DNA from: Planctomycetota bacterium
GTDB taxonomy: Bacteria > Planctomycetota > GCA-002687715 > CAIWVZ01
NCBI GenBank assembly: GCA_044222185.1
Contig: JBGANV010000011.1
Coordinates: 96,001-160,000 of the forward strand
Direction of reading: 5' to 3'
DNA length: 64,000 bases
The notes beneath the pieces are model-generated. The model saw only the letters and a list, made by a program, of their open reading frames with translations, was not told the origin of the DNA and did not search any database. Of this stretch, positions 3,021-57,864 are shown one piece after another. The position numbers were made by a program, and so were the translations under genes. How positions within the stretch are numbered: the stretch's first letter is position 1; every line of letters starts with the position of its first letter.

Positions 3021-3989
3021 TCAGAGAAGCGTGTACGCGAACGGGTTCGTGAACGCGGCGACCGAGGTCAGCGACGCATCCAACTCGAGCCCAACGCAGT
3101 AGATCGTCGTCCCTGAGGGGAGCGGCCCGGGGATCACGACCGTTGCGCTGCCATTGCCGTCGAGCGTTCCGAAGAACGGCGGTCCCAGCGCGACCTCGGC
3201 CAGGGCATCGGAGATCGACAGGTCGATCCCGAAGAGCGCGCCGTTGGGAAACGAGCCCTGGGTGAACGTGACGAGGTTGACATGGGTGTTGCCGGGTACT
3301 CCGCACGCGTTCGTCATGGTGAGCGCGCCCGAGGCGGCGGTCTGCGAGAGGGTGAAGCGGTAATCCCTGCAGATCTGGAAGCCGTCGATCGTGCCCGCGC
3401 CCTGCGCCGCCGACCAATCGATCACGAGGTCTGCGCCCGCGGCCAACGTGACGGCGTGCACGGCGTGCGTGATCCCGGGCGTGAACGTGTTCACCGCCAC
3501 CAGTGCGCCCCCGACGACCTGCGGGTTCGGACTCGTCGATCCCTGCACGCTCACGCTCGTCAGGTACGAGGCGCTGTCGGGCGCCCACGCATAGGTGAAC
3601 ACCACGTAACGACCGGGGGCGAGGCCCGTGAACCGGTAACTCATGGACATCCCCGCCGCGGCTGCGTGGCCGTCGTCCATCAGCGATTGGAAGTAACCCG
3701 TCGTCATCAGGTTGTTGAACCCGAACAGGCCGCCCATGCCGTCATTGCGCGTACACACGACACCGGTCGCGGCTCCCGACAGATCGGACAGCGCAAACGG
3801 GCCCGCGCTGACGTTGGCGAGCCAGTTCCACGTTCCAGGTTGATGCGCCGCCGCGCCGTATGTCGGCGCTGGCGTCCCGGAGCCCGCGCCACCGGGGACG
3901 ATGGATCCGACGTCGAGGTTGAAGGACTGGGCGACGAGCGACGTGGCGAGAAGTGCGGACACTGCGACGGTTCGGGGCCTGATTCTCAT
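3021..3989 (-). CDS. Exported protein, beta-sandwich N-domain plus shared C-terminal module (type A variant)
   Basis: Signal peptide MRIRPRTVAVSALLATSLVA|Q; FTGLAPGRYVVFTYAW; tail LSQ..SGAL...GALFGI...GPPFFGTLDGNG...LPSGTTIY. Confidence 0.8.
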   Translation of the reverse strand: MRIRPRTVAVSALLATSLVAQSFNLDVGSIVPGGAGSGTPAPTYGAAAHQPGTWNWLANVSAGPFALSDLSGAATGVVCTRNDGMGGLFGFNNLMTTGYFQSLMDDGHAAAAGMSMSYRFTGLAPGRYVVFTYAWAPDSASYLTSVSVQGSTSPNPQVVGGALVAVNTFTPGITHAVHAVTLAAGADLVIDWSAAQGAGTIDGFQICRDYRFTLSQTAASGALTMTNACGVPGNTHVNLVTFTQGSFPNGALFGIDLSISDALAEVALGPPFFGTLDGNGSATVVIPGPLPSGTTIYCVGLELDASLTSVAAFTNPFAYTLL

Positions 3990-4195
3990 GGGCGATCCTT
4001 CGGTCGGGGGCAGAGCACGGTGGACGCCGCAGGTGCAAGCGCCGTGCCCGCGTCGTCGCAGGCGGAGAACCGCGGGCAACGGGTCAGGCAGGGGCCCCGC
4101 TCCGTGTACGTTCGCCCACGCGCCGGGCAATTCACACACGCGAAGGTCGGCGCAACCGGGTCGTCGCGGGGCACAGAGCGCCGCGCTGCGACGCG

Positions 4196-16946: not shown

Positions 16947-18683
16947 ATGTCGCACCGCCCACTTCTCACCGTGCTCGGATTCGCGTTCGTATCGATCGCC
17001 CTCCACGCCCAGACGACCCGCAACGTCCCCGCGCAGTACCCGACCGTGCAGTCCGCGATCAACGCGTGTGTGAACGGCGACAACGTGCTGGTCGCCCCCG
17101 GCACCTACTCGGGGAACCTGAACTTCCTCGGCAAGGCGATCACCGTCCACAGTGCGCAAGGTTCGGCGGTCACCACGCTCCAGGGGCTGGGATCAATCCG
17201 CGTCGTGACTTTCTCGGCGAACGAGGGACCCAATTCCGTACTCGACGGCTTCACGGTGACGGGCGGTGTCGGAGGGATCGCGTGCCTCAACGCGTCACCG
17301 ACCATCACCAACTGCCGGGTGACGGGGAACATCGCCCCGACGCTCGGACCGTACGGCAACGGCCAGGGTCCGACGCAGACGGGCGCAGGTGGCGGAATCT
17401 ACTGCCAGGCGACGACCGCGAACTCCTCACCGACCCTCTCGAACTGCGTCGTCGAGAACAACGTCGCGATCATCGGTGGTGGGGTGTACATGGAGGCGAG
17501 CGGAACCGGCACGTCGCTGCCCTTCGTTTCCGGTTGCACGCTTCGCAACAACCTCGCCTACCCGTCGGCCTACGGCTACGTGTCGGGGAGCGGCGGCGGA
17601 GCCTACATCAACGGTGCGTCGGCGACTTTCTCGAACTGCACGATCACCGACAACATCTCAGCGCAGAATGGCGGTGGCGGAGTGACGGTCGTCGGTGGTG
17701 CCGCCGTCACCTTCACGCTGATCACGTGCAAGGTGAGAGGCAACCACACGAACGGAACCGGTGGCGGTCTGAGCCTCGCCACCCAGTTCACGCTCACGAA
17801 CTGCATGGTCGTCGACAACTCCGCGACGCAAGACGGAGGGGCGGTGTACGCCAACGGCGCCGGCACCATCCAGGCGACGACCTTGAGCGGAAACACGTCG
17901 GCCGCAACCGCCGGAGGAATCGTCTGTGTCGCCGGCCTCTCGGTCGTCAGCTCGATCGTCTGGGGCAACTCGGGGATCGACATCCTTCGCGACATCTACG
18001 CTCCCTCCGCTTCGGCTCAGTCCGTGAGCTACTCGGACGTCGGCTTCGTCTCGGGGGCGACGTTCGCCAGCGGCGTGATCACCGCCAATCCACGCTTCGT
18101 AGATCCCGCGAACGGCGACTACCACCTCGCCGCGTCGTCACCGTGCCGCAACGCCGGCGTGCCCAACGCCTCCGGCTATCCGACGACGGACACGGACGCC
18201 GGCCCGCGCATCGTCGGACCTTCGATCGACATGGGCGGCGACGAGATTCCCGTCCTGGCACTCCCGGGTTCCAACGAGGACGTGGAACTCTACGGCTACG
18301 TGAACGGCGGCGGAGACCCGCTCGCGTCGTCGCGCGCGGCCGCCGCGGGAAGCATCGCCAGGCTCCTCATGCGGTCGCCCGGTGGGTCGTTCATCGGAAC
18401 GACTCCGCTGGTCGTGGGTCTGCTCTTCCCCTCGAACACGCCCCCCGCGCACCCGGCCGGGCTGCCCCAGGTCTGGGTGAGCGGGCCGATCTTCGTCCTC
18501 CACGGCGCACTCGGCGCCCCACCGTTCACTGTGCCGGGCCTCTCCTCGGCGGGGCTCACGTTCGACTTCGCCGTCCCGCCGGGACTCGGCGGACAGACCG
18601 TTCGCTTCCAGGCACTGGTGGTCTCGCCGAGCGCGTTGAACAGCGCGTTCGCGGTCACGAACGCGACCGACTTCATCCTCTGA
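16947..18683 (+). CDS. Exported parallel beta-helix repeat protein with shared C-terminal module (type B)
   Basis: RBS AAGGAG; signal ...IALHA|Q; VPAQYPTVQSAI, GGG/N-rich beta-helix repeats, NPRFVD..GDYHL..SPC, DMGGDE; tail GLGGQTVRFQALVV.P.A.N. Confidence 0.88.
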   Translation: MSHRPLLTVLGFAFVSIALHAQTTRNVPAQYPTVQSAINACVNGDNVLVAPGTYSGNLNFLGKAITVHSAQGSAVTTLQGLGSIRVVTFSANEGPNSVLDGFTVTGGVGGIACLNASPTITNCRVTGNIAPTLGPYGNGQGPTQTGAGGGIYCQATTANSSPTLSNCVVENNVAIIGGGVYMEASGTGTSLPFVSGCTLRNNLAYPSAYGYVSGSGGGAYINGASATFSNCTITDNISAQNGGGGVTVVGGAAVTFTLITCKVRGNHTNGTGGGLSLATQFTLTNCMVVDNSATQDGGAVYANGAGTIQATTLSGNTSAATAGGIVCVAGLSVVSSIVWGNSGIDILRDIYAPSASAQSVSYSDVGFVSGATFASGVITANPRFVDPANGDYHLAASSPCRNAGVPNASGYPTTDTDAGPRIVGPSIDMGGDEIPVLALPGSNEDVELYGYVNGGGDPLASSRAAAAGSIARLLMRSPGGSFIGTTPLVVGLLFPSNTPPAHPAGLPQVWVSGPIFVLHGALGAPPFTVPGLSSAGLTFDFAVPPGLGGQTVRFQALVVSPSALNSAFAVTNATDFIL

Positions 18684-18764: not shown

Positions 18765-21700
18765 TCACTGGAACGTGACCGACGCCACGTTCGAGTGCCC
18801 CGTCGGCGTGAACGTCGCCGGGTTGAACGTGCTCGTCAGTCCGTAGAGCGTGATGCCGTTCAGGGCCGGCGTCACGGTGAAGGGCGGCAGCACGAACGAG
18901 GATCCACCGGTCGGATCGAGCTGTCCCACGAACGGCGGAGCGCCGGCGAGGAACTGGTCGATCAGATCCGGCAGGCCGATCGTCAGCCCGAACCAGAAGC
19001 CCGTGCCAGGACTCGTGCCGTTCGTCGGATCGACGGAGAACGCCGAGAAGTACGCGGCGCCCGCGGGTCCGAACGTGTTGACGGCAGCGAGCGAGCCGGT
19101 CCCCAGCGGCTGGGAGAGCGCAAACAGCAGGTCGTACAGCGTGAGCGACGCGGGCGTGCTCGTGACCTGCTGGCCACAGGCGTCCGTGACGACCACCGTG
19201 TAATTGCCGACCGAGCCGGCACCGACGGACGGGATCGTGAAGGTGCTGCCCGTCGCGCCCGAAATCGGGCTGCCGTTCAGGCGCCACTGGTACGTGAGGA
19301 ACCCGATGCCCGTCGCGCTCACCGAGAAGCTCACGGGATGACCGATGACGCCGTTCTGGTTCGCCGGCTGCGTCGTGATCAAGGGCGGCAGGGCGATCAC
19401 CGTGACCGTCTGCGTGCACGTCGCGACGTGGTTCGACGTGTCCAGCACGAGCCAGGTGACCTGGCTGGTGCCGGCGAAGAAGACGGGCGGCGCGTTGTTC
19501 GAGATCGACAGGATCCCACAGTTGTCACTGACGGTCGGCGTCCCGAGTGACACGTTCGTCGCGATGCACTGGCCTGGGATGCTGTTCACGGTCACGTTGG
19601 GTGGACAGGTGATCGTCGGCGCGGCGATGTCGACGATCGTGAACGTGGTCGTGCACGTCGTCGTGTTGCTCGATCCGTCCGTCGCCGTGAACGTGATGGT
19701 GTTCGGCCCCAGATTCCCGATCGAACCCGCGGCGGGTGACTGCGTGATCACGACCGCGCCGCAGTCGTCGGAGGCAACGACGCCCGATCGCAGGTCCGGG
19801 ACCGTCGCATGGCACGCGCCGTCGGCGATCGCCTGCGCGCCTTGTGCGCACGTGGTGATCGTCGGCGCCGTCGTATCGAGGACGGTGAACGTGGCCGAGC
19901 ACGTCGCCGTGTTGTTCGCCGCATCCGTCACCGTGAAGGTCACGGCGTGCGGGCCCAAGCCGGTCGAGCTTCCCGGTGCGGGGACTTGCGACACGGTGAC
20001 CGTGCCGCAGTTGTCCGCGGCGACGACGCCGGCGCGCATGTCCGGGACGGTCGCAGTGCAGGCCGGCCCGGCGGACGCCTGGGCGTTCGGCGCGCACGTC
20101 GTGATCACCGGCGCCGTGACGTCGACGACCGTGAACGTACGCGTGCACGTGGCGGCGTTCGATGCGGCGTCGACCACCGTGAAGGTGATCGTGTGCGGGC
20201 CGATGCCCGTCAGCGTGCCCGCGACCGGCGACTGCGTCACCGTCACGGCACTGCAGTTGTCCGTCGCGACGACGGCCGCGCGCATGTCAGGCACGGTCGC
20301 CTGGCATGACGCGTTGGCGTTCGCCTGGGTGTTCGAGCCGCAGGACGTGATGGTCGGCGCCGTCGTATCGACGACCGTGAAGATCGCCGTGCACGTTGTC
20401 GTGTTGCTCGACCCGTCCGTCACGGTGAACGTCACCGTGTGCGGACCGATACCGACTGCGGTGCCCGCCGTCGGCGACTGCGTCACGGCCACGGCGCCGC
20501 ACACGTCGCTGGCGATCACGCCGCTACGCATGTCGGGCACGTTCGCCTGGCACGTCGCGCCAGCCGATGCCTGAGCGTTCGCCGCGCAGGTCGTGATGAC
20601 CGGAGCGGTGACGTCGATCACCGTGAACGTGCGCGTGCAGGTCGAGCTGTTGCTCGCGGTGTCGGTGGCTGTCAGCGTCACCGTCTGCGGGCCCAGGCCC
20701 ACCAGCGTTCCAGGCGCCGGCGACTGCGACACCGTCACCGCGCTGCAGTTGTCCGTGGCGACGATCGCGGCCCGCATGTCGGGCACGGCGGCCTGGCAGG
20801 ACGCATTGGCGTTCGCCTGTGCGTTCACGCCGCAGTTGGTGATCACGGGGGCCGTCGTGTCGACGACCGTGAACACGCTCGTGCACGTCGTGGAGTTGCT
20901 GCTCGCATCGGTCACCGTGAACGTGATCGTGTGCGGACCAATCCCCTGAACCGATCCGATGCTCGGCGACTGCGAGATCGTCACCGATCCGCAGTTGTCC
21001 GATGCGACGACTCCCGCCCGGAGGTCCGGCAGCGTCGTCTGGCAAGCCGCGTTGGCGCTCGCCTGCGACGCCGGCGCGCAGCTCGTGATCGTCGGCGCGA
21101 CGATATCGATCACCGTGAACGTCGCCGTGCAGGTCGTGCTGTTGCTGGAGGTGTCCGACACGGTGAACGTGACGGTGTGCGGTCCGAAGCCCAGAAGTGT
21201 GCCGGGTGCTGGCGATTGGACGATCGTGACGCTCGTGCATCCGTCCGAAGCCAGGACGCCCGCGCGCATGTCCGGGACCGCGGCCTGGCAGTTCGTGTTG
21301 GCGATGCCCGATGCGTTGGACGCGCATTGCGTGATGACCGGTGCCGTCACGTCCAGGACCGTGAAGGTCGACGTGCAGGTGGACGAATTCGCGTGCGTGT
21401 CCGTCGCCGTGAACGTGATGGTGTGGGGCCCGACGCCCAGCACGGTTCCCGCGATCGGTGACTGCGCGAGAGTCACGCCGCCACAGTTGTCGGTCGCCGA
21501 GACGCCGCTGCGCAGGTCCGGCAGTGTCGCCTGGCACGTGGCGTTGCCGGCCGCCGAGCTGTTCGGGGCGCAGTTCGCAAACACCGGCGCCTGGGTGTCG
21601 TTGACCGTGACGGTGAACGAGCACGTCGTCGTCAGGTTCGCGAAGTCGACGGCCGTGTACGTGACGGTCGTCGTGCCCACGGGAAACGGCGCGCCCGGGC

Positions 21701-23288
21701 TGTGCGTCGACGTGAAGCTCGCGACGGTGCAGTTGTCGGTGGCGGTCGGCGGAGTCCACGAAACGTTCGCCGAGCAAAGGCCGTTCGCGGCGTTGACGAC
21801 GATGTTGGTCGGGCACCCGGTGATGACCGGCGGCACCGTGTCACCGAACAGCGACGTGGAGACCACCCACAGCTCGTTGCCGTGCACGCCGTCCTGCGCC
21901 TGGAAGAAGATGTTGTTGCCGGAGACCTTGAACCCCGCCGGGTTCGCATTGCCGTTGCCGGGGAACACGTCGGCGACGATCAGCGTCGTGGCCAGGGTTC
22001 CGTTGGAGTGGTACGGCTCGTTGCCGATCCCGTTGCCGCCATCGGCGGCGAACATGAGCCCGGAGCCGCAGCCGGTGACGATCGACGTGATGCTCCCCGG
22101 GCTCGCGCTGCCGGATCCCGCGAAGATGTCGCGAACGAGCACCGTGCCGGCATTCGTTCCGTCGCTCTTCCACAGCTCGGCGCCCGTCGAGCCGTCCGAG
22201 GCGCTGAAGTAGGCGACGCCTCCGGACTCGACCATGTTGATGATGCCGGACCCGGGGATCCCGGGGCGGATGTCCTTGACGATCGCCGTGCTGCCGCCGG
22301 GAACGGCTTTCCACAGTTCCAATCCCACGCTTCCGTTGTCGGCCGCGAAGAGGAGGTTTCCGTTCAGCGCGATCATGCTCACCGGGTTCGACGCTTGCGG
22401 ACCCGGGCGAACGTCGAGCGTCACCACGGTGCCGGCAGTCGTTCCGTCCGTCTGCCATAGCTCGTTGCCGATGACGCTGTCGTCGGCCGCGAAGTAGAGC
22501 AGGTTCCCGACGGCGACGAGGTTCGTCGGCGTCGCGTTGGACGCGCCGGGGCGGATGTCCTTCACGAGCTGCGTGCCCGCCGTGGTTCCGTCCGACACCC
22601 AAAGCTCGCGCCCGAGCACGCCATCCGTTGCGGCGAAGAAGAGCCGCGGAGGATTGCACGCCACGGTGATCGAGGTGGGGTTGCTGTTCACGCCTCCGAG
22701 CGGGTCGAACGCGATGTCCTTCACGAGCGTGACGTTGGTGCCGTCGAACCTGTACAACTCGATGCCGAAGGCCGTCGGGCCAGCGGCGATGGCGTTATCG
22801 GCTGCGAAGTACAACGCTCCGTTGTAGACCACGAGTTCGTGGGGGCTGGATCCGGGCGCCCCGGCCGCGAGGTCGAAGACCATCTGCGTTCCAGCGGTCG
22901 TGCCGTCGGTCCGCCAGAGCTCGACGCCGTTGGTCCCGTCCGTCGCCGTGAAGTAGACGAGCGAGTTGAAGAGGATCATGTTCGCGGGCGCTGACGGCTG
23001 CGGGCCCGGATTGATGTCCTTGATCAGAACCGTGCCGCCTACGGTCCCATCGCTCTTCCAGAGCTCGGCCCCGAGGCTGCCGTTGTCGGCCGACATGATC
23101 ATCGCGCCGTTGAAGTTGATGAACTGCGACGGGTTGGACCCGCCGTTGCCGGGACGGATTTCGATGAGCGTCGCCTGTCCGGCAGCGTTAAGCGCCGTCA
23201 ACGTGATTAACGCCGCAACACATGCGGCAACGCGCAGAGTTCCAACGAGCCTGCCGAAACCTGCTGGGAATGACTGATCGCACTGCAT
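18765..23288 (-). CDS. Large adhesin-like protein: ELWxxDGT beta-propeller + 10 HYR-like domains + Ig domain + C-terminal module (type A)
   Basis: About 9 ELWxxDGT-like repeats; ten D(T/V/I)xxPxxxxC repeats; ITTQP...YQW Ig domain; start chosen at MQCDQ (signal ends LNAAG|Q). Confidence 0.9.
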   Translation of the reverse strand: MQCDQSFPAGFGRLVGTLRVAACVAALITLTALNAAGQATLIEIRPGNGGSNPSQFINFNGAMIMSADNGSLGAELWKSDGTVGGTVLIKDINPGPQPSAPANMILFNSLVYFTATDGTNGVELWRTDGTTAGTQMVFDLAAGAPGSSPHELVVYNGALYFAADNAIAAGPTAFGIELYRFDGTNVTLVKDIAFDPLGGVNSNPTSITVACNPPRLFFAATDGVLGRELWVSDGTTAGTQLVKDIRPGASNATPTNLVAVGNLLYFAADDSVIGNELWQTDGTTAGTVVTLDVRPGPQASNPVSMIALNGNLLFAADNGSVGLELWKAVPGGSTAIVKDIRPGIPGSGIINMVESGGVAYFSASDGSTGAELWKSDGTNAGTVLVRDIFAGSGSASPGSITSIVTGCGSGLMFAADGGNGIGNEPYHSNGTLATTLIVADVFPGNGNANPAGFKVSGNNIFFQAQDGVHGNELWVVSTSLFGDTVPPVITGCPTNIVVNAANGLCSANVSWTPPTATDNCTVASFTSTHSPGAPFPVGTTTVTYTAVDFANLTTTCSFTVTVNDTQAPVFANCAPNSSAAGNATCQATLPDLRSGVSATDNCGGVTLAQSPIAGTVLGVGPHTITFTATDTHANSSTCTSTFTVLDVTAPVITQCASNASGIANTNCQAAVPDMRAGVLASDGCTSVTIVQSPAPGTLLGFGPHTVTFTVSDTSSNSTTCTATFTVIDIVAPTITSCAPASQASANAACQTTLPDLRAGVVASDNCGSVTISQSPSIGSVQGIGPHTITFTVTDASSNSTTCTSVFTVVDTTAPVITNCGVNAQANANASCQAAVPDMRAAIVATDNCSAVTVSQSPAPGTLVGLGPQTVTLTATDTASNSSTCTRTFTVIDVTAPVITTCAANAQASAGATCQANVPDMRSGVIASDVCGAVAVTQSPTAGTAVGIGPHTVTFTVTDGSSNTTTCTAIFTVVDTTAPTITSCGSNTQANANASCQATVPDMRAAVVATDNCSAVTVTQSPVAGTLTGIGPHTITFTVVDAASNAATCTRTFTVVDVTAPVITTCAPNAQASAGPACTATVPDMRAGVVAADNCGTVTVSQVPAPGSSTGLGPHAVTFTVTDAANNTATCSATFTVLDTTAPTITTCAQGAQAIADGACHATVPDLRSGVVASDDCGAVVITQSPAAGSIGNLGPNTITFTATDGSSNTTTCTTTFTIVDIAAPTITCPPNVTVNSIPGQCIATNVSLGTPTVSDNCGILSISNNAPPVFFAGTSQVTWLVLDTSNHVATCTQTVTVIALPPLITTQPANQNGVIGHPVSFSVSATGIGFLTYQWRLNGSPISGATGSTFTIPSVGAGSVGNYTVVVTDACGQQVTSTPASLTLYDLLFALSQPLGTGSLAAVNTFGPAGAAYFSAFSVDPTNGTSPGTGFWFGLTIGLPDLIDQFLAGAPPFVGQLDPTGGSSFVLPPFTVTPALNGITLYGLTSTFNPATFTPTGHSNVASVTFQ
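19395..21842 (-). repeat. Intragenic tandem array of ten ~80-aa HYR-like repeats, mostly with 4 Cys each
   Basis: Repeated unit DxTAPxITxC...CQAxxPDxR..V.A.DNC..V...QSP..G.....GPHT.TFT.TD...N..TC...FTV; boundaries approximate. Confidence 0.85.
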
Positions 23289-24090: not shown

Positions 24091-26205
24091 TCACGGCACG
24101 TTCAACACGCGATCCTGCGAGATGTGAAACGCGCCATTCGGCGCCGACGTGTCCAGCACGAACCCCTGGAAGTAGAGCGTTGTGCCCGACGGCAAGCCCG
24201 TAGGACCGAACGTGTACGTGAACGTGTAGAGGCCGCATCCATCGGTCGCCGCTGACGGATTCGGCGATGAGAAGACACCGGGTCCGTCGGCGAGCGGCGC
24301 GAACGGCGCGCCGAGCGACACGTTGATCGTCCCGAGGGCGCCCAAGCTCGTGGGGCCGGGCTGCGTCCCCGCGAGCAGAAGCACGAGCCCGCCAACCTTC
24401 GAGCTGAGGATCGTCGCGCCGAACGTGGAGTTGGCGGTCCCGTGGCCGGCGAGCGTCAGGTTGGCGGACTGAGGCACGAGCGCCTGTCGCACGTAGCGCG
24501 TGGTCGTGAGCGGCGCGGCCGAGCCCGGCGCGTTGAACGACGTCAGGATCCCCGAGTTCCCCGACGGCGACTCGATCCCGCGTGTGGCACTCGCCCCACC
24601 GTCGGTCGTCTGAAGGATCGTCGTCGACACGGTGCCAGTCGTCTCGTCGACGATGATCTCGAACGACTCGGGATTGGTGGTGCCGAACCGGTAGACGCCC
24701 GACCACTGCACGGCGAAGCGGCGATTGGGCGGCTGCCCGACGACGCCCCAGGTGATGCTCCCGCTGCCGGGAGGAGCTCCGACGTGAAGGTCGTCCCAAT
24801 ATCCCGCGATGAAACCATCGGGGGCTCCACTCGTCGGGATCGCCACGTTCTGCCAGAGGTTGCCCGCCGTCGACGGCATGTAGAGGTAGCCGTTCGTCGA
24901 GATGCCGATCTGCGTCAGCGTCATGTCGAAGAACGGCAGCGCGAGCCCTCCGGGAAGCGTGACGACCATGCCGATGTCGTCGCCCGTCGGGCCGGGCTGT
25001 CCCACGCCCGTCAACACGACGTGATCGAACGGGACTGACGGGTTCTGCGTGTAGACCGTGGCCGTCGGCACCACGGGCGGCGGCGGGCACGAGTACGGCT
25101 TGTAGGGAATGAGCGTGAACCCTGTCGGCGCACCGCCCACGGCGATGAACGCGAACGTGTACGTCGTCCCCCATCGGATGGCGTTCGCCGTCTGGTTCTG
25201 GAGCCACGTCTCCCCCGCCCATGAGATGGACGAACTCGTGATCGTCGGCGTCCAGTCCGTACCCGAGATGGTCTCGCCCGAGTGGTAATCGACGTCGTGG
25301 AAGTAGGCGCCGAAGACCTGGGTTCCGGGAGTCAGGTCGACGTGGAACTCCTGGCACGCACGTTCGGAGTTCAAGTTGTGGACGGCGTAGACGACCGTCT
25401 GCACGCCGGGGCTCCACGTCGTGACCTTGCGCCCGACGATGAAACGCCCGTCGGGAACGTCGACGTACTGGATCGTCACCAGCGGATCGTAGGCGGCCCA
25501 GGCTTCGATGGCCGCGTGCTGCTGGACGGTCGAACCCGTCAAGGCGAGGGTGTAGTTCCCCGCCGTCCCGCCAACGGTGCACGGACGCCACGACGCGTTG
25601 TTCGCGGTGTTGCCCGCCGTCGCGTCGTCAGGCGTGACGTACTGCCCCTCGGCGATGTAGACGGCACCTGCATTTACCGCCGGATCCAGGTCCGATTCGT
25701 GGACCTGGAGGCGACGGTCGATGATCGTGGCGAACGGCGGCGCGGAGAATGGATAGGGAAACACGCCCGTCGTGGGATTCACCTGCGAACGAGGCCCGAG
25801 GATCGGCTGGTTTCCATTGGTCCCCGAGCCGTAGGGATCGGAGCACCCGACGCCCATGATCTGGCTGTTGTTCGGGTTCTGGCACGTGCCGCAGAGGTTG
25901 CCCGTCGACGAGCCGAATCCGTGCTTCACCCACGACATTCCGACCTGCTCGAACCGACCGTTCAGGATCCGGAACAAGCTCTGGGAGATGGCGGGGTGGT
26001 GGTTCGTCGCGGCCTCCCACGGCATGGGCTGGCTGCCCACGTTGCACGACGTCGTACCGAGCGCGAAAGCGGCGATGCCGCCGATCGACCCGTAGTTCGT
26101 GGGCGCGGTGAGGTCGCCGACGATGACGTCAGGACCCACGCCTTGAGCGAGCGATGTGAACGCCGTGACGGACGCGACGGTGAGCGCGGCGACGATGGGT
26201 TTCAT
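24091..26205 (-). CDS. Exported multidomain protein (planctomycete-type N-domain, nidogen-like middle) with C-terminal module (type B)
   Basis: Signal ...FTSLA|Q; GPDVIVGDL, GTTSCNVG, GRFEQVGMSWVKHGF, GCSDPY; ISTNGY..IAGYWDDL..VQW; tail GTTLYFQGFVLD..APNG. Confidence 0.85.
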   Translation of the reverse strand: MKPIVAALTVASVTAFTSLAQGVGPDVIVGDLTAPTNYGSIGGIAAFALGTTSCNVGSQPMPWEAATNHHPAISQSLFRILNGRFEQVGMSWVKHGFGSSTGNLCGTCQNPNNSQIMGVGCSDPYGSGTNGNQPILGPRSQVNPTTGVFPYPFSAPPFATIIDRRLQVHESDLDPAVNAGAVYIAEGQYVTPDDATAGNTANNASWRPCTVGGTAGNYTLALTGSTVQQHAAIEAWAAYDPLVTIQYVDVPDGRFIVGRKVTTWSPGVQTVVYAVHNLNSERACQEFHVDLTPGTQVFGAYFHDVDYHSGETISGTDWTPTITSSSISWAGETWLQNQTANAIRWGTTYTFAFIAVGGAPTGFTLIPYKPYSCPPPPVVPTATVYTQNPSVPFDHVVLTGVGQPGPTGDDIGMVVTLPGGLALPFFDMTLTQIGISTNGYLYMPSTAGNLWQNVAIPTSGAPDGFIAGYWDDLHVGAPPGSGSITWGVVGQPPNRRFAVQWSGVYRFGTTNPESFEIIVDETTGTVSTTILQTTDGGASATRGIESPSGNSGILTSFNAPGSAAPLTTTRYVRQALVPQSANLTLAGHGTANSTFGATILSSKVGGLVLLLAGTQPGPTSLGALGTINVSLGAPFAPLADGPGVFSSPNPSAATDGCGLYTFTYTFGPTGLPSGTTLYFQGFVLDTSAPNGAFHISQDRVLNVP

Positions 26206-26292: not shown

Positions 26293-27744
26293 TCACTGGA
26301 TCGTCACGCGAAGTCCGTTCGATGCGGAGAAGACTCCGTTCGCCGCGCCAGGGTCGAAACCCGCGTACTGGAACCAGATCTGCGCCCCTGCGGGGACGGC
26401 GGGCGGAAGCGTCCAGCCGATGGAGTAGGCCCCGACCGCATTCAGCGTGACGTAGAGCGGCGGGAAGATCGTTCCGCCGAGCAGGAGCGTGCAGCCCTGG
26501 ATCGGCGTCGCGCCAGCGGCCGTCGCAAGCAGCAGCACGCCGCTCCCGAGCACCTGCCCGTTCGTGACGTCGACGCCCGCGACGTGGTTCGGCCTGGGAT
26601 CGCCGAACGCCGCGAGGATCGGCGTGCGGTTCGCGCTCCCGGGACAACCGACGCCATAGGTCGACGTGGGCTCGTTCCACTTCACGACGTTCGCCGACCC
26701 GGTGCCGTCCACGCTCGAGAAGATCCCGCCGACGGCCAGGTCCACGCCCCACGGGGACAACGCGTACGCCGCCTGCACGGTGCCGCCGCTCGACATGTAA
26801 TTGGCGACGGGTGACCACGCGTAGCCATTCCACTTCGCGACGTTCGCCGCGGGAAGCCCGCCGGCCGTCGTGAAGATGCCGCCGGCGATCAGGTCACCGG
26901 CATAGGACGTCACGGCCAGCACGTAGCCATACACGCCGCCTCCGATTCCGGAGCCGAAGCCCGACCAGCTCGTGCCGTTCCACGCCGCGACGTCGTGGGC
27001 CGGGACTCCGCCGGCCGTGGCGAAGAGCCCTCCAACGACGAGTTGCCCGTTCCAGTTGGTGATCGAATACGGGATGTTGTTGATGCCACTGCCGAGTGCG
27101 GACCACGCCGTGCCGTTCCACTTGGCGACGTGGCTCGCCGGGTTTCCGCCGGCCGACGTGAAGAAACCCGCGGCGATGAGATCGGCGCCGTAGGTGCCGA
27201 CGGCCATGACCTGGCCCTGCGTCCCGCCGGACCCGCTGCCGAGCGGCGCCCAGTTGTTGCCGTCCCAGCTCGCGATGTGATTGGCGGGCCCGTTCGCGTC
27301 GGTGAAATAACCGCCAGCGATCAGCTTGTTGTTCCACACGCCGAGGCACTGGACCTGGGAGTTCATTCCGCCCTCGAGGTCGGTCCATGCCGTGCCGTCC
27401 CAACTCGCGATGAAGTTGACGTTCACGGCGCCCGCGTTCACGAAGCTGCCGCCGGCGATCAGGTTCCCCTGGTAGACGGTGAGCGCCCAGACGTCTCCAT
27501 CGAGACCCGAGCCGAGCGCCGACCACGACGTTCCGTTGAATCGCGCGATGTGGCTCGCCTGAACGCCGCCGGCCCAGGTGAACTTGCCACCGGCGATCAG
27601 ATCGCCGTTCCAGACCGTCGTGGCGTACACCCAGTCGCTCACGCCGCCGGCGAGCGTGGACCACGTCTGCGCTGGTGCGGATGACAGGACGACGCACGTG
27701 ACGACCGCCACTGCGGCTGCGCGGCAGAACTGAACGTGACTCAT
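26293..27744 (-). CDS. Exported beta-propeller repeat protein (W[ND]GxxW repeats) with C-terminal module (type B)
   Basis: About 7 repeats of LIAGG.F..AGG..A..IA.WNG..WS.LGSG; signal SSAPA|Q; tail GAQIWFQYAGFDPGAANG..SASNGLRV. Confidence 0.88.
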   Translation of the reverse strand: MSHVQFCRAAAVAVVTCVVLSSAPAQTWSTLAGGVSDWVYATTVWNGDLIAGGKFTWAGGVQASHIARFNGTSWSALGSGLDGDVWALTVYQGNLIAGGSFVNAGAVNVNFIASWDGTAWTDLEGGMNSQVQCLGVWNNKLIAGGYFTDANGPANHIASWDGNNWAPLGSGSGGTQGQVMAVGTYGADLIAAGFFTSAGGNPASHVAKWNGTAWSALGSGINNIPYSITNWNGQLVVGGLFATAGGVPAHDVAAWNGTSWSGFGSGIGGGVYGYVLAVTSYAGDLIAGGIFTTAGGLPAANVAKWNGYAWSPVANYMSSGGTVQAAYALSPWGVDLAVGGIFSSVDGTGSANVVKWNEPTSTYGVGCPGSANRTPILAAFGDPRPNHVAGVDVTNGQVLGSGVLLLATAAGATPIQGCTLLLGGTIFPPLYVTLNAVGAYSIGWTLPPAVPAGAQIWFQYAGFDPGAANGVFSASNGLRVTIQ

Positions 27745-32305: not shown

Positions 32306-33082
32306 TCAGGATCTCCCGCGAGAGGTGCATGCGGGTCGAGGCTGGTGCGGCACGAACACGTCGAGGTGGCCTGAGCCTGGGCGCCGTGAGCGGCGCGCAG
32401 GTGCCCGGGCGCGGAGATCCGTCCACCGAATCGCGATTCGAGCCCGCGTTCGATCGGATTTCGTGTCTGAGAGGCGCCGAGCCGCGCGTGACGCGAGGTT
32501 CGGCGCGAGGTCGTTCGGCCCCGGGAGCACGAGGACGCGCGTGTCGTTCGCCACGGGGTGGAGACGGTGATGCCGCGTCGGTGAATCCCGTCCGATCCAG
32601 CCATTCCGAGGCGAGTCTTGGAGTGCGGCGCCCGACCACACCGGAAGCGCGACCGGCCTTCGGCTGAGGGATGCGACATGAAACACCGACTCGCCGGGCG
32701 AATTGCGGAATCCAAGATAGTGGTGGCGGTCCATCAGCGAACGGGATCTCTCGTGTCCGGCCATCTCGAGGGCGCCGACGATGAACGTCGTGTCCTCCGG
32801 CCCGCGGATCTCGAACGCTCCCACCAGCCGATCACCCGGACGGATTGGCGTAGCCTGTCGGCGCCGCCGTGGTGGCGAAAGTTGGATCAGTCCACGCCGC
32901 TCGAGCCCTCGAAGCACGTGAGCACACGACTCGACGGCAGGCGCGCCTGTTCGTCGCCGCCATCCGAACAGCTCGCACCCGCGCCGCGCGATCTCCTTGC
33001 GCCGATGATCGGCTGCATGCCGGACGATCCGGCGGATCTGAGAGACCGCGTTCGGTCCAAGCGTCGTGCCGCGATACGTCAC
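32306..33082 (-). pseudogene. Degenerate DUF4338 (DruA-like, IS-associated) gene
   Basis: CELFGWR..G....SC...L..LE..GLIQL, HHYLGF, WSGAAL, GWIG, RLHPVANDTRVLVLP, NLASRAARRL resemble eroded DUF4338 motifs; the 3' GTC motif is in another frame. Confidence 0.7.
32349..32488. repeat. Copy 2 of the diverged 140-bp direct repeat
   Basis: See copy 1; palindrome at 32427-32440. Confidence 0.8.
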
Positions 33083-39844: not shown

Positions 39845-40693
39845 TCAGTTGATGTTCAGGCTCGCGACGCTCGTGACACCAATCTGGATCGTGAGCGTGG
39901 GATCGAAGAACGTGGTCACGGCGTAGAGGTCAGGCAACGCGGGCGAAAGCGCGCCCGGCGGGAGTGAGAAGTCGGCGATGCCAGCGAAATCGAGCGCGCC
40001 GATGAACGGCGCGACACCGGTCTGCGCCTGCTGCACCACGTCCAGAAGGCTGATGTGGAGGCCTTGCCACCATCCGAGGCCCGGGGACGTCGCGTTCGCC
40101 GTGTGGAAGCTGAACGCGGTGAAGTAGATCGCGCCAGCGAAACCGGCAGCGGGTGGCCCGTAGACGTGGACGAGCAAGCTGCCCGACCCCTGCGGCTGGC
40201 TCAACGTCAGCTCGACCGCGGGCGAGGTCAGACTCACGAGCCACGCGCCAGGCCCCCAGGTGATGACGTTGTTCTGGAAGCCGGTCCCGTCGATCGTCGT
40301 GAATCCCGGGCTGCTGAACGACTGCACGAGCCATCCATCCGGCGCCGTCGCGCTGGAGTGGTATCCGATCCAGCGCGGGCCGCCGTTCGAGAGGGTGTAC
40401 TGCGGCGCGCCCATCACGCTCACGAGAGTCTGCCCCGTCGGGGCGCTCTTCCCATTCAGTGCGTTGATCTGCGCGCTCGTCGCCCAGGTCCAGATCTGGC
40501 TCGACTGAACGAACGCGTTGATCGCCGCGCGCGTCTGGCCCACCCATAGCGCCGGGTCGTACCAATAGAGCCCCGTGGAGCTGTCGTAGAAGTACTGGCC
40601 GGATTGCCCCACGTTCACGAGCTGCGTGAAGGCCGGCGATCCGAGTCCGAGGCAGAGGATGGCGATGGTCAGCCCGCGATTTCTCGAAGTCAT
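39845..40693 (-). CDS. Exported protein with short N-domain plus C-terminal module (type A)
   Basis: Signal ...GSPAFT|Q; YDSSTGLYW..WATSAQI; tail LSQPQGSGSL...YFTAFS...PGLGWWQGLHI...PFIGALD. Confidence 0.82.
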   Translation of the reverse strand: MTSRNRGLTIAILCLGLGSPAFTQLVNVGQSGQYFYDSSTGLYWYDPALWVGQTRAAINAFVQSSQIWTWATSAQINALNGKSAPTGQTLVSVMGAPQYTLSNGGPRWIGYHSSATAPDGWLVQSFSSPGFTTIDGTGFQNNVITWGPGAWLVSLTSPAVELTLSQPQGSGSLLVHVYGPPAAGFAGAIYFTAFSFHTANATSPGLGWWQGLHISLLDVVQQAQTGVAPFIGALDFAGIADFSLPPGALSPALPDLYAVTTFFDPTLTIQIGVTSVASLNIN

Positions 40694-47124: not shown

Positions 47125-48642
47125 TCAACGCAGGATGAGGTCGACCGCCGGCGACAGGCTGTAGCCTCCGTTGGCGGCGAGCGGATCGATCACGACGCCC
47201 TGCAAGCGGCACGTGATTCCAGCAACCCCTGGTGGAACGAGGAACACGACGTCGATGCCAGCGGGCGGCATCAATGGCAGACCGAACGGAGAGATCGGCG
47301 CACCGAAGACGAAGATCGCCGACGCGGGATCGACGTGGAGGACGCCTGCGTAGCCCGAGGGAGGGAGTCCGCTGGCGAATGCCTGGCCGACGAGCGCGCA
47401 GGGTCCGAACGCCGTTCCCTGGAACCGTGCGACGACCATGTCCCCGACGGATGCATGCTTCTGCATCTCCGTCCACAGCCCCGCGCCGTTCACCTGCAAG
47501 CCGAGGAGCGCGCGGCCGTCCTCCGTCCCACCGAGCCATTCGTCGGCACCCATGTCCGGCAACGCGGCCGCCGGGCCGCAAACCCGTGGATCACCGTCGA
47601 GGTCGGTCGCAGGGAGGCCGCCGGGCACATCGAGGGTCCCCGCTCCGCGGCACGGCGAATCGGATCGCAGATGCAGGCCGAACCCAGCCTCGAATCCAAT
47701 CGAGCCCGGAGCGCGCACGAACCTCGGATCCAGGGACACGTTGCCAACTCCGGGATATGCGCCGCTCACGTCGCAAGAGCGAACGTCGAGCGAGTCGCCG
47801 ATGAACTCGCCCGGGCTCGGGCCGATCGTGTTGGATCCCGAGTCGTCCCAGAAGATCGAGTTCAGGACGACGCCTCCCCACGAAATCAGTCCGCCGGGCG
47901 CGCCTCCGTCCGGCCCTCCGGTGGGTGTCCCGCCGGAGTTCGCCGTGAAGGTGCAGTGGATGATCGTCGCGGAACCGAATGCGTGAACGCCGCCGGCACC
48001 GACTTCGATGCCGGTGTTCCACGGGAAGCCACCGCGATCGCCTCCGACGTTCTGGGTGACGATCGTGTCGACCAGCAGCAAGTCACCCGAGCCATCGATT
48101 CCCCCACCGGCACCCGGCCCAGGGCTCTGAACGACGAAGGGATAGCCGCCGACGTACCCATCTCCACCAGCGCCTCCGCGGTTGTCGACGATGATGCAGC
48201 GGATGACCTGGAGAGGGCCATTGAACTGGATGCCGCCACCACCGCCGCGGCCTCCCGGCTCGAATTCCGTCGCCGCGAGTCCCGCAGCACCTCGACCGTG
48301 AGTCACGGTGAGGCCGATGATCGCGGAACCTGCCGAGGCCAGGATGATCGGGTCCAGGTCGTCGCCATGGACGACGGTCGCCTGCGGTCCGTCGGGCGCG
48401 ATCAACGTCGTACCGGATGGCATCGAGATGTGGCGCTCGTGATAGACGCCGCGCCCCACTCGGATCGTGTCGCCCGTCGACGCCATCGCGACGCCAGCCT
48501 GGATGGTCGGGAACGGGAACTGGAGGCTCCCGTCTCCGGGAGGCGTGGCCGTTGCCGACACGTGCCACACGGACTGCGCGTGCACGGTCCAGACCAGGAG
48601 GATGAGCGCCAGCGAGTGCGTGCCGATGCGAATGCGGACCAT
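47125..48642 (-). CDS. Exported Gly-rich beta-helix protein with C-terminal module (type B), paralogous to 16947-18683
   Basis: RBS GGAGG; signal WTVHA|Q; GDGS..FPFPTIQAG, DPRFV, SPC..AG, DLDG.PR, DMGADE; tail FLVPPGVAGITCRLQGVVIDPLAANG. Confidence 0.87.
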   Translation of the reverse strand: MVRIRIGTHSLALILLVWTVHAQSVWHVSATATPPGDGSLQFPFPTIQAGVAMASTGDTIRVGRGVYHERHISMPSGTTLIAPDGPQATVVHGDDLDPIILASAGSAIIGLTVTHGRGAAGLAATEFEPGGRGGGGGIQFNGPLQVIRCIIVDNRGGAGGDGYVGGYPFVVQSPGPGAGGGIDGSGDLLLVDTIVTQNVGGDRGGFPWNTGIEVGAGGVHAFGSATIIHCTFTANSGGTPTGGPDGGAPGGLISWGGVVLNSIFWDDSGSNTIGPSPGEFIGDSLDVRSCDVSGAYPGVGNVSLDPRFVRAPGSIGFEAGFGLHLRSDSPCRGAGTLDVPGGLPATDLDGDPRVCGPAAALPDMGADEWLGGTEDGRALLGLQVNGAGLWTEMQKHASVGDMVVARFQGTAFGPCALVGQAFASGLPPSGYAGVLHVDPASAIFVFGAPISPFGLPLMPPAGIDVVFLVPPGVAGITCRLQGVVIDPLAANGGYSLSPAVDLILR

Positions 48643-52981: not shown

Positions 52982-54292
52982 CGCCGCGAGCCTATCGAAT
53001 CCGCGCGCGACGTCGATCCAGGTCGCGGACATCTGGTCCCGACGCCGGGACCTCGCTCCATCGCGGCAGGATTCAGTTTCCGACGGTCACACGAAGGCCT
53101 TGGGTGAGCGAAGCCCCTCCGCTTGCTGACGGGTCGAGGATTCCCGCCTGCGCGAAGAACGTCATTCCGGCCGTGAAGGCATCCAGTGGGAACGTGAACC
53201 ACCACGATCCGACGCCTGCCGTCCACGCTGTTCCTCCCGTGTGCAGCGGCCAGTCGACGAGAGGTGTGATCAGCAGCGCGCCGCCGAGGTTCCTTTGAAA
53301 CGTGGTCGGTCAGCCGCTCGCCGTTCGCCGCAGCCCGACGACGCCATCCAGTGCCGGTGATCGACGACTGCGAGCGGACGCGGCCGCCGCATGCCCGAGG
53401 CCGGGCCGGCTCCACTCGCCGGCACTCCGGAGCAATCACGGGAGAGCTTGCGATTCCTCCCGAGATCGGCTTCGAGAGACGTCTGCCCAGGCACACGATG
53501 ACCCCGCCGAGGTCGCCCTCGTTCGTCCATCCCTTCGCACCTGGACCCCGGGACCCCGCCGTAGGCCACGAGGTCGCCACAGTCGCGCGATTCCCGCTTC
53601 TGCACCACGAACAAGATCACCAACACTCTTGCCTCGACGCGCCCGCCAGCCCGGGGGGGGGCATGCGGTCCGTCGCAGGACCCGATACACGTCGTGGATT
53701 GGAGAGGCAGGACCTGATTGCCGGTCGTTGCTGCAACCCCACTGCGCTCGGTGACACCACCAACGCGGCTGCGGTTCGGATTGATCCTGAGAAGACGCGG
53801 AAGTCGCACCGAAGACCGTCTTCGCCGCCGAGGCGGGATGCGAGCGAACACGCCTCCGAGAGCAGTCGCTCGGATTTCACACGCTGAACCCACGGGCTTG
53901 TCGCGACCGTCTCCGCGTGATGACCTCACCATCGGCGGCCGGACACCGGAGCGTGCGGCTGAGAGACACGCATGACCTCACCTCGCCGCCAGCGGCCCGC
54001 GCGGCTGGCCCACGGCACGGCACACGGGCGGGTGCGGCGAGCGTTCGCCCGCAGGCTGAACGGAAGGTCTGGGCGTCGCACCGGTATCCCCTGGCCCGCG
54101 CGACGACGCCTCACGCGTTCACCTTCGGCAATGGTGGGGACCGGCGACGTCATGACGAGCGAAACTGCGAAGGAACGATCAGATCGCCCATGCTGCGCGA
54201 TCACTGGTAGTTCAGACCCCTGGTACTATCGGACCCCAGCCGTCGTCGAACGACTGCCATCGCCCATCTCACCGAATACACGGAACGGAGGC

Positions 54293-55124: not shown

Positions 55125-56267
55125 ATGAAACCGATCGTCCGACTCGCAATTGCTGCGGCGGTCATTGGCGCCGCGGTTCCATCGCAATCTCTCGTCTTGT
55201 GGAACACGCTTGACAGCGACGCGGCTGCGCTCTCGAGCGTCGTCGGCCCACCGCTCACCTTCTTCACAGGCGGAGCGCCCTATCCCTCCGTCATCGGGAC
55301 GCGCACCTACGTGCCTGGAGTGGCAGGTAACGCGCTGACGCTGGGTCCCGCACCCTATCTCGCCGGAGTTCGCGCGCAGGTCCTCACGCTCATGAACCCG
55401 GGAGCAGTGCTCAACCCGGAGAGAGGCACGATCGAAGCGTGGTATCTGACACGCGAAGAGTCGATGCCCTATTACAACAACTCGCACTGCATGTTCGGCT
55501 CGATGCGTGAATGCGGTTTCGAGGCAGGAATCGTCCTGGCGACGTCGAACGTCTCCGGAGCACCGCAAGGAACGCGGCTCTACTTCATGATCGAGGCGTG
55601 TGGAACCCCGGTCGACGTGTACTCCCTCTTCGACGGCGCGCAGGGGTTCGCCATCGGAGGGCTCACCAATCGCTGGTTGCACGTTGCAGCCTGCTGGGAC
55701 CGGCTCGGCATCGCCGGCACGCAGCACACGATGCGTCTGTATCTGAACGGACGGGTGGTCGCGGTGAGCATGGACCCGAGTTGGGGTCACCAATTCGGCT
55801 GGGGCGCCACCGTCGGAGGAGCCAGCGACTCACACATCGCCCGGAAGTTCCTCGTCGATGAACTGAAGCTATGGGACGGGGCCAAGACCCAGTTCGGTCT
55901 CGACCTCGGGCTGTATGCGGCGCAGCTCGACGGTGCAGGTTCGGCCATCCTCGTGAACTGCACGGGAAAGCCCGGGTGGAAGTACTTCACGGCAATCACC
56001 GGTGATCCCGCGAACGGCGGCGCCGGATTGGGGACCGGCCCATGGGGCGGGTTGCATATCTCCCCCGGTGAACTGTTGCTCGAGTGGTCGACGCAGCAGC
56101 CGCCATTCGTTGGATTCTTGGATGCGTGGGGGGACTCCTCCTTCGTGCTGCCGGCAGGAACCCTGAACGCGCTCTCCGGCGTCGACCTCTATCTCGTGAG
56201 TCACATGCTCAATCCCTGGGGCGGCGTCGAGGAAGCATCGGCACCAGTTCACATCCGGTTGAACTGA
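55125..56267 (+). CDS. Exported LamG/concanavalin-like protein plus C-terminal module (type A)
   Basis: Signal AVPS|Q; GTIEAWY, WLHVAACWD, MRLYLNG, VDELKLWD; tail G.GPWGGLHI..PPFVGFLD..G.SSFVLP. Confidence 0.85.
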   Translation: MKPIVRLAIAAAVIGAAVPSQSLVLWNTLDSDAAALSSVVGPPLTFFTGGAPYPSVIGTRTYVPGVAGNALTLGPAPYLAGVRAQVLTLMNPGAVLNPERGTIEAWYLTREESMPYYNNSHCMFGSMRECGFEAGIVLATSNVSGAPQGTRLYFMIEACGTPVDVYSLFDGAQGFAIGGLTNRWLHVAACWDRLGIAGTQHTMRLYLNGRVVAVSMDPSWGHQFGWGATVGGASDSHIARKFLVDELKLWDGAKTQFGLDLGLYAAQLDGAGSAILVNCTGKPGWKYFTAITGDPANGGAGLGTGPWGGLHISPGELLLEWSTQQPPFVGFLDAWGDSSFVLPAGTLNALSGVDLYLVSHMLNPWGGVEEASAPVHIRLN

Positions 56268-56739
56268 CGCGGACCAGCGGTCCACGGCGCACGTGCCACC
56301 ATCCACGCGGAACGGCTTGGAGTGTGAATGCGCCATCTCGCTGGCCGTGCGACACCGGCGGCGCCGAACCACCGCCCGTTCGATCGCATGAGGTCTGTCT
56401 CTTTCGTTGGGTCTTCGAGCGTCGGAAGACTCGGCGCTCGAACCGCATCGGGCCGCCAGGCGGGCTGGCGGCTGGCGACCGACATCCGGCAGACCAAACC
56501 GGGGCGCAGCCCTATCACGCTGGCTGCAAAGCTGGCACGACGGCGCCGCCGCGTCGCGAGCTGGAAGTCGTCATCCCCGCGAAAGACGCGATGCCCCCGT
56601 GTCTCGCACGACGGTCGGTCGCCCGACATCGCGGCGCGCGGATGCCCGCAACTCGTCGCCTGGCCGACGCGCGCGCTCGCGCGGGCCGTTGGGACCGGCT
56701 CGAGGAAGAGCGACCGGTCCCGGTCACGCCGCTTGCTCG

Positions 56740-57864
56740 TCAGTAAACCGAAAACCTCACCGCAGGCGACATCGGTCCGACGACGCCGCCCGTCACGTCG
56801 ACGCAGATCGACTCGAATGTCAGGCCGATCGGCTCGAAGTGCGGGCCGAACACCGCCGTCACGCCCGGTGCGACGAAATGGACCGGCACTGCACCCACCG
56901 GCAGCTGGAGCTGGAAGATCAGAAACGACAGATCGCTGAAATAGAGCCCGCCCCACGGTCCGGTACCAAGTCCGTTGGGGGCCCAGTCGCCACTGAACAG
57001 GTTGAAGTACTCATGGCCCGCCACGAGATTCGAGCTCGTCCCGTAGAGGGCCGTGCCCGAGCCGCCGGGTTGATGGAAGGTGGCGCGTGGTTCGATCGGC
57101 AGCTTCGCCCGATCCCATGCCTTCAGCTCGTCCACGTAGAACTTGCCCGCGATGTCCCAATCTCTCCCGCCTGCCACGGCAGCCACGGGCCCAAACGATG
57201 GCCCCCAACTCGCGGCGACGGTCTTTGCCACGAGCTCACCGTTGACATAAAGACGCACCCGGTCGGCGGTCCCAGCGATCCCTGCGCGATCCCACACGGC
57301 GGCGAAATGAATCCATTGGTTGAGCATGTTCACCAACGGATGACCCGGGAGCCCATCGACGATCGACATGGCGTCGACGGAGGCGCCGCAGAGCTTGATC
57401 GTGAACACCACACGTGCCGTGCTCCAGAACTCGGGATGATTCACATACAACGCCATCCCTGCCTCGTAGGCGCATTCCTGCGACTGCCCGAACAGCATCT
57501 GAGCGTTGTTCACATAGGGTGCGAGTTCTTGCTTGCTGAGGTACCAGACCTCGATCGTCCCGTGCTCGGGATTCAGCACGGCTCCCGGGTTCGGGAGTTC
57601 GATGGCGTGGGCCGGCATGTTGGATTCATAGGGTCCAGGGCCGAGTGTGAACGCGCTCGAAGAAACCCCCGGCACGTAAGCCCGCGTCGCGACGATCGTC
57701 GCGTAAGGGCGGTTACCTCCCGCGTAGAAGACGAGCGGCGGGCCGACGACGCTGTTCAGCACTGCCACATCGCTGTCGAGCGTATTGTGGAGAACGAGCG
57801 TCTGCGCGGCACCGCCTGAAGCGATCATCAAAGCGCACAAGCCGATCAACAGGGGCGCTCTCAT
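56740..57864 (-). CDS. Exported LamG-like paralog plus variant C-terminal module
   Basis: Signal GGAAA|Q; GTIEVWY, WIHFAAVWD, RLYVNG, VDELKAWD; tail QPGGSG..EYFN...GLGTGPWGGL. Confidence 0.85.
   Translation of the reverse strand: MRAPLLIGLCALMIASGGAAQTLVLHNTLDSDVAVLNSVVGPPLVFYAGGNRPYATIVATRAYVPGVSSSAFTLGPGPYESNMPAHAIELPNPGAVLNPEHGTIEVWYLSKQELAPYVNNAQMLFGQSQECAYEAGMALYVNHPEFWSTARVVFTIKLCGASVDAMSIVDGLPGHPLVNMLNQWIHFAAVWDRAGIAGTADRVRLYVNGELVAKTVAASWGPSFGPVAAVAGGRDWDIAGKFYVDELKAWDRAKLPIEPRATFHQPGGSGTALYGTSSNLVAGHEYFNLFSGDWAPNGLGTGPWGGLYFSDLSFLIFQLQLPVGAVPVHFVAPGVTAVFGPHFEPIGLTFESICVDVTGGVVGPMSPAVRFSVY

Follow-up and report, generated by a model that had tools for sequence, protein, structure and literature searches.

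The DNA window studied here, 64,000 nucleotides from a Planctomycetota bacterium (G000:C11:96001-160000, where G000 is the source genome, 7.08 Mb long and 93.8% complete, and C gives the contig number), encodes eleven predicted exported proteins that carry different passengers and end in a common C-terminal domain. The domain is real, and it is uncatalogued in the libraries that we searched. We propose, at a probability of about one half, that these tails are a retained, non-covalent surface-docking module, dockerin-like in role, for several hundred exported proteins, for which we infer both a binding partner and a route across the outer membrane. The N-terminal, internal and three-copy forms of the domain, the exclusion of lipid anchors from its carriers and its replacement by dockerins on the same passenger narrow the mechanism toward docking and away from a signal like that of the type IX secretion system (T9SS).

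An earlier note on this window had described eleven signal-peptide proteins with unrelated passengers and one terminal module of two sequence types, A and B. The description of the genes held: all eleven are present at the coordinates listed below, each ends in the module, and the best genome-wide profile scores of their tails range from 41 to 176 bits. By eye, the N-termini look like type I signal peptides with a Gln after the likely cleavage site. Several passengers could be named by Pfam or NCBIfam (genes are called by their first position), namely ELWxxDGT and HYR repeats (18765), FG-GAP (30295), LamG (55125 and 56740) and a DUF5122/Rax2 propeller (26293), while the beta-helix passengers (16947 and 47125) have weak library support. 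The same libraries gave no match for the passengers of 3021, 28692 and 39845 or for that of 24091, whose label 'nidogen-like' was assigned by eye. The copies of the domain in the window are as follows.

3021-3989, minus strand: exported protein with an unnamed passenger and a type A domain at 3024-3374 (independent E-value, iE, 1e-30), adjoining extracytoplasmic function (ECF)-sigma-like and Ser/Thr kinase genes.
16947-18683, plus strand: exported beta-helix-like protein with a B-group domain (subtype C) at 18261-18680.
18765-23288, minus strand: ELWxxDGT propeller, HYR repeats and Ig, with a type A domain at 18768-19142 (modelled).
24091-26205, minus strand: unnamed N-terminal passenger (query of the tail-swap test), middle domain and a B-group domain (subtype D/E) at about 24094-24460.
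26293-27744, minus strand: beta-propeller (DUF5122/Rax2-like) with a core type B domain at 26296-26691 (modelled).
28692-29819, minus strand: exported protein with an unnamed passenger and a B-group domain (subtype D) at 28695-29126.
30295-31950, minus strand: FG-GAP propeller whose final ~130 residues are a divergent type B domain (within 30298-30732).
39845-40693, minus strand: exported protein with an unnamed passenger and a type A domain at 39848-40228.
47125-48642, minus strand: beta-helix-like protein with a B-group domain (subtype C) at 47128-47535.
53073-53309, minus strand: a twelfth, partial copy, the C-terminal half of a type B domain with a stop codon and no in-frame passenger or start (iE 3e-11).
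55125-56267, plus strand: LamG-like passenger with a type A domain at 55893-56264.
56740-57864, minus strand: LamG-like passenger with a type A domain at 56743-57099, near a pair of kinase and ECF-sigma-like genes.

The orphan half domain at 53073-53309 lies in a gene-poor stretch and is probably what is left of a carrier gene.

Types A and B form two branches of a single uncatalogued superfamily, whose domains are 120-135 residues long. When the eleven tails were compared with each other by phmmer (E<0.01, ordered pairs), 18 of 20 A-A pairs and 15 of 30 B-B pairs were significant but just 7 of 60 A-B pairs; none of the 114 pairs reported between tails and reversed tails passed this threshold. 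Alignment of profiles with hhalign connected the types, at 91% for A-B (E 1e-6), 95% for B-C and 98% for B-D with reversed controls under 1%; the A-C and A-D links were not significant, and an intermediate subtype overlaps the matches of A, B and D. Copies share 20-30% identity. The two types of the earlier note are therefore both real and related, but type B is heterogeneous, with three subtypes in the window (26293 and 30295; 16947 and 47125; 24091 and 28692), and the tail of 56740 has the type A motif without its 'G.LD..G' part.

AlphaFold was run on the tails of 18765 and 26293 with 42 type A paralogues (of about 75) and 40 type B paralogues (of about 240) as input. Both models, with pLDDT (predicted local distance difference test) scores of 95.8 for A and 93.5 for B, are predicted seven-stranded Ig/FN3-like sandwiches, in agreement with the common module that had been proposed, and both have an insertion after the third strand, which consists of a hairpin and a helix in A and of a long hairpin in B. 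The best fold matches of both were generic FN3, Ig and macroglobulin domains (Z 8.3-8.4, rmsd 2.5-2.6, 87-93 aligned). The top 50 matches contained no T9SS C-terminal domain (CTD), and no cohesin or carbohydrate-binding module (CBM) stood out among the fold matches, although a relationship to any of the three may still exist; Foldseek gave no match for the type B model at E<=0.001. The type A hairpin holds two invariant glycines (G-P-hydrophobic-hydrophobic-G-L), and in type B a Cys of the N-terminal arm co-occurs with a hairpin Cys (both in 77, neither in 64, one in 45). The domain has a grand average of hydropathy of 0.50, against 0.17 in the passengers, and a combined Lys, Arg and Glu content (K+R+E) of 3%. 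An existing DUF entry had been thought possible, and we found none: Pfam, NCBIfam, PDB sequences and the ESM Atlas gave the tails no name. The PDB sequence search returned no match below E 0.003, and the weak match of the type A profile to an adhesin Ig repeat (4p99, E 0.003) reflects just the fold. Searching for homologues with the alignment of type B yielded no more than 11 proteins, none with an informative name, and neither the titles and opening parts of abstracts of the papers found nor main-text passages (10.1101/817700, PMC11285876, PMC5837995, PMC11032199), supplements aside, contain a description of the domain.

The genome-wide profile count that the earlier note had suggested was made on 4,784 genes from a simple gene caller of our own. 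A carrier had to score at least 20 bits on any of six subtype profiles, whereas the best reversed-gene decoy scored 12.2 bits. The domain was found in 447 genes (about 9%) and in no decoy; since the window tails seeded the profiles, the weight lies on the decoy comparison and on the hundreds of non-seed matches. The counts leave aside open reading frames (ORFs) outside the gene calls (8 of 387 in a first count) and one shadow-ORF match at window position 32031-32831. Iteration of the profiles on all six-frame ORFs converged on 73-76 type A proteins and about 240 of core type B, and reversed decoys gave no match at iE<0.001. When all C-termini of the genome were clustered in an unbiased way, the domain tails formed the two largest groups, and the domain is the largest paralogous tail family of the source genome.

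The domain is C-terminal in 386 of the 447 carriers, N-terminal in 35, internal in 23, both internal and C-terminal in one and present in three copies in two. The N-terminal carriers have a single copy straight after the signal peptide, in front of Kelch-like propellers or unnamed domains, and the two three-copy proteins (G000:C6:335673-336863 and C1:1324421-1325560) consist of a signal peptide and the three copies, with nothing else. The earlier note had placed the domain at C-termini, and this is only partly so: in 61 of 447 carriers copies lie N-terminally, internally or in tandem, although type A by itself is C-terminal in 70 of 70. Because of these copies the superfamily as a whole does not qualify as an export signal confined to the C-terminus. 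The claim of a tag for either outer-membrane export or surface docking is thereby weakened in its export half, while its docking half fits best, since an end-biased but flexible position is what binding modules have. A kinase that ends in the domain (G000:C14:150280-153957) was considered as a cytoplasmic use and set aside; a segment inside it resembles a signal peptide, and the gene appears to be a fusion.

Among 301 genomes of the phylum, 55 show a strong expansion of the domain. The type B profile matched 62 of the 301, and 55 of these had 7-13 of 13 scored candidates, nearly all-or-none by family; it also matched all 15 other genomes of the source order. In public data it matches at least 30,174 clusters at 50% identity, and among the 150 clusters listed the match reaches the C-terminus or nearly so. 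We compared 45 of the 54 other domain-rich genomes with 35 domain-poor ones, among which five have one type B match each. Type A was found in 13 of 13 genomes of the source order (5-51 matches), in 11 of 32 other domain-rich genomes (1-8) and in none of the 35 domain-poor ones; it is a strictly C-terminal branch that is expanded in the order of the source genome.

The tail swap was followed with the N-terminal passenger of gene 24091, which occurs at 77 loci; eight loci whose frames are interrupted by contig ends were left out, and 69 complete frames remained. Thirty of these carry the superfamily (28 at the end, 2 inside), 28 have dockerin-like EF-hand tails, 7 end in a short IFxDGFE tail and 4 have others. 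The 30 superfamily tails include Cys-rich forms (hhalign to B 96%, and 99% between two Cys-rich groups), and the tails of two loci (L088 and L089) have a weak hhalign link of 63%. The dockerin-like tails, mostly in Phycisphaerae records, were judged by eye; of nine scanned, four pass the NF041540 cut-off and one more passes PF00404. The proposal of a swappable module on unrelated exported proteins, used at a very large scale, is thus supported, and in other lineages dockerins replace the module on the same passenger. Other tails were also seen on this passenger. The IFxDGFE tail, possibly a further sorting signal without a catalogue entry, occurs in Thermoanaerobaculia records (L100, L127, L133, L141, L142, L144 and L146), and NCBIfam gave no match in the two cases scanned; L084:830-2950 has a different Ig-like tail (weak NPCBM-associated match), and L113 ends in a tail of a transmembrane (TM) segment plus basic residues, judged by eye.

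In Phycisphaerae and other Planctomycetota, the tails of GC-type dockerin (NF041540) and dockerin type I (PF00404) resemble our domain in their place on the same passenger and in their many copies per genome. The expansions do not overlap in the 80-genome panel: at least 10 dockerin matches were found in 4 of the 35 domain-poor genomes and in none of the 45 domain-rich ones, and the source genome has no match to either model, while controls gave matches. Dockerins are twin EF-hands, whereas our domain is a beta-sandwich unrelated in sequence and fold, with no cohesin partner identified; dockerin profiles do not match the eleven tails, and our models are all-beta.

A crude rule based on hydrophobicity found signal-peptide-like N-termini in 274 of 372 carriers and in 1,411 of 3,859 other proteins. 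A Gln stands at the candidate +1 site in 286 of 319 carriers compared with 521 of 1,092 other signal-like proteins. The median K+R+E is 4.5% in carriers and 5.0% in their passengers alone, in contrast to 17-18% in other proteins, including other signal-peptide proteins, and 442 of the 447 carriers have less than 10%. This low charge marks a distinct class of proteins that are likely extracellular. It is not caused by the domain, because the same passenger is equally charge-poor with a dockerin tail (8.2% vs 7.9%). Among 135 charge-poor proteins first taken as non-carriers, 53 hold a divergent copy, and 8 of the remaining 82 are lipoproteins by a lipobox pattern. In the anchor tests, 8 of 400 carriers matched this pattern (1 plausible by eye), compared with 126 of 2,652 other soluble proteins, and a strong TM segment was present in 2 of the 400 (25 at a laxer threshold). 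Carriers of the domain thus almost never have other anchors, lipid or membrane, in line with the earlier statement that the tails have no TM anchor.

In the docking mechanism that we propose, carriers would be exported by Sec, and cleavage by signal peptidase I would expose the Gln, which a glutaminyl-cyclase-like M28 protein may convert to pyroglutamate. The proteins would fold in the periplasm, where the Cys pair often present in the type B arm and hairpin would form a disulfide, and would likely cross the outer membrane by the genome-encoded type II secretion system (T2SS). They would then dock through the hydrophobic, uncharged, lineage-specific insertion between the third and fifth strands onto a shared surface partner. 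The leading candidate partner would be a set of equally charge-poor Ig-like lipoproteins, the alternative being an outer-membrane lipid or glycan.

Candidates for several of these parts are encoded in the genome. A T2SS operon with two tandem GspD-like secretins lies at G000:C1:1541589-1552520, and there are eight secretin genes in all. A membrane-anchored M28 protein (G000:C5:5205-6308, L230) is most like animal-type glutaminyl cyclases, and no plant-type enzyme (PF05096) was found in the source genome. Together with the Gln after the signal peptides, the M28 protein possibly represents the Q-rule outside Bacteroidota; the passages of PMC5837995 on this rule call it Bacteroidetes-specific among the phyla examined there. 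The Ig-like lipoproteins are 780-890 residues long and charge-poor, with almost no library annotation (families at G000:C2:256989-263865, C1:1252332-1254923, C8:71635-74034, C6:360262-362601 and C1:1303878-1306556). Judged by its matches, this lipoprotein family appears partly to co-occur with the domain, and best among the candidates: 26 of 45 rich and 2 of 35 poor genomes matched one query, and 41 of 45 and 5 of 35 matched an alignment. The FadL/PorV-like barrel at G000:C1:1663341, which has two flanking carriers, was rejected as a partner; it scores below the PorV cut-off and has matches in 3 of 45 rich and 7 of 35 poor genomes. The FadL/PorV-like barrel and the C25 peptidase described below do not track the domain; the Ig-like lipoproteins partly do. 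Dedicated machinery was identified neither in the window, as had been said before, nor in the genome.

Several points weigh against docking. C-terminal placement of 86% of copies, and of all type A copies, would suit an export tag too. The lipoprotein co-occurrence is weak, in that kin share genes and five panel genomes sit in the alignment; many distant matches cover just a Gly-rich segment, four rich genomes have no match, and one genome (G034) has strong lipoprotein matches (E 3e-51) with no domain match and, on checking, no divergent version of the domain. The low charge is independent of the domain, as the dockerin-tailed passenger indicates, the signal peptides rest on a crude heuristic, and the dockerin exclusion hangs on four genomes. 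Packing against its own sheet may be all that the hydrophobic insertion does. Docking, localisation and retention are each deduced from sequence, and the role of the GC-type dockerins, our analogue, is itself an annotation.

The strongest competitor, which we regard as rather unlikely, is that the domain, at least in type A, is an export tag like the T9SS CTD, recognised by a specialised T2SS or by an outer-membrane translocon that has not been described, and perhaps cut by a PorU-like peptidase. The prevalence of C-terminal copies and of Gln after the signal peptide agrees with it, and the passengers GEVED, C25, FG-GAP and DUF7948/SBBP presumably overlap the known T9SS cargo pool. Like the T9SS type A CTD (TIGR04183, Por_Secre_tail) of Bacteroidota, the domain is a predicted Ig-like 3+4 sandwich that ends hundreds of unrelated Sec substrates, and the predicted seven-stranded fold would resemble the CTDs in the passages of PMC11285876, which give them 67-108 residues and a conserved Lys in the C-terminal strand. 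Our domain is longer, has a large insertion, also occurs at N-terminal and internal positions and lacks the terminal Lys motif; its terminal positions are T/L/I/V/F/G/P/Q, and the commonest residues from -1 to -8 do not include Lys. TIGR04183 and PF18962 matched neither the eleven proteins nor 60 relatives in Pfam nor the genome, and PorP/SprF and SprA were also unmatched in the genome; the genome-wide results are weak negatives, as the control genomes were silent too. A heuristic barrel scan gave porins, Omp85 proteins, a TonB-dependent receptor and the sole FadL/PorV-like protein, with no giant uncharacterised barrel. In the source order, where type A is expanded, 11 of 13 genomes encode full-length orthologues of a tail-less, charged, single-copy PorU-like C25 protein (G000:C1:2008849-2011527, L193), which reaches 150 bits on NF033707 against a cut-off of 420 and is conserved in that order alone. 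As a general sortase it was rejected, with no match in 19 of 45 rich genomes and shorter relatives in poor ones; it may still be a sortase for type A.

Other terminal or envelope modules place the domain further. SLH (S-layer homology), CWB2 and similar modules bind the envelope non-covalently, are end-biased but flexible in position, sit on unrelated exported proteins and replace lipid or TM anchors; our domain has no Pfam match to them, suffices as a single copy and belongs to a diderm host. PEP-CTERM and MYXO-CTERM are likewise many-to-one terminal tags on diverse passengers, whereas our domain is folded and soluble, with none of their motif, TM helix and basic cluster. The domain is dockerin- or SLH-like in its working and T9SS CTD-like in predicted fold and usage, and it departs from the T9SS CTD in sequence, position and terminal motif and from dockerins in sequence and fold.

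It is improbable, in our judgement, that the domain binds itself in an S-layer-like mosaic coat, in which each tile would show a different passenger and the three-copy proteins would be fillers or cross-links. The two three-copy proteins, the share of genes that carry the domain and the lack of a dedicated protein partner that tracks it cleanly speak for such a coat, whereas just two multi-copy-only proteins exist and 20-30% identity is much variation for one lattice interface. Cultured strains of the Saltatorellus clade presumably carry the Cys-rich form of the domain. The main text of the Saltatorellota preprint (10.1101/817700) does not contain the word 'S-layer'. We give equally little credence to binding of an external hydrophobic or carbohydrate substrate, such as a particle or a prey membrane, in the manner of CBMs or ML-type modules and with no tie to the producing cell. 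The hydrophobic, uncharged insertion and weak Foldseek rows for the ML-family lipid binders GM2 activator, Der f 2 and NPC2 (E 0.02-0.05, TM-score about 0.3) would agree with this, but these rows are not significant and are absent from the top 50 of the other fold search, most passengers are non-catalytic scaffolds, type B has no evident conserved exposed aromatic triad, and the exclusion of lipid and TM anchors would be unexpected. Retention in the periplasm, through peptidoglycan or the inner face of the outer membrane, is very improbable given the charge-poor carriers and the adhesin-like passengers (HYR, FG-GAP, LamG, beta-helix), even though only Sec-type signals were seen and no dedicated outer-membrane machine was found.

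The surroundings of the carriers also have recurring features. Ser/Thr kinase genes lie at most two genes from a carrier in 68 of 112 cases genome-wide, compared with 1,043 of 4,254 other genes (window examples 1-3989 and 56740-62145), and a frequent order is kinase, ECF-sigma-like gene and carrier. This clustering suggests regulated cassettes. At 62254-63609 (minus strand) the window also encodes a signal-peptide protein that begins with Gln and is without the domain.

What is new in this analysis is a census of domain positions, the exclusion of other anchors, counts of the tail swap and tests of candidate partners. We tentatively suggest, as a possibility well short of even odds, that a branch of Planctomycetota runs an undescribed display system, in which about a tenth of the proteome would be exported and clipped through an Ig-like superfamily with lineage-specific subtypes onto Ig-like lipoproteins or onto itself, as a mosaic coat. 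Such a system, if it exists, would join cohesin-dockerin and T9SS with A-LPS (anionic lipopolysaccharide) as a third way for a diderm cell to display proteins in mass. A model of the domain would mark 5-10% of the genes in many uncultured Planctomycetota as envelope or surface proteins. To our knowledge, the placement of proteins beyond the outer membrane has been little studied in Planctomycetota, and the domain provides a handle for studying it.

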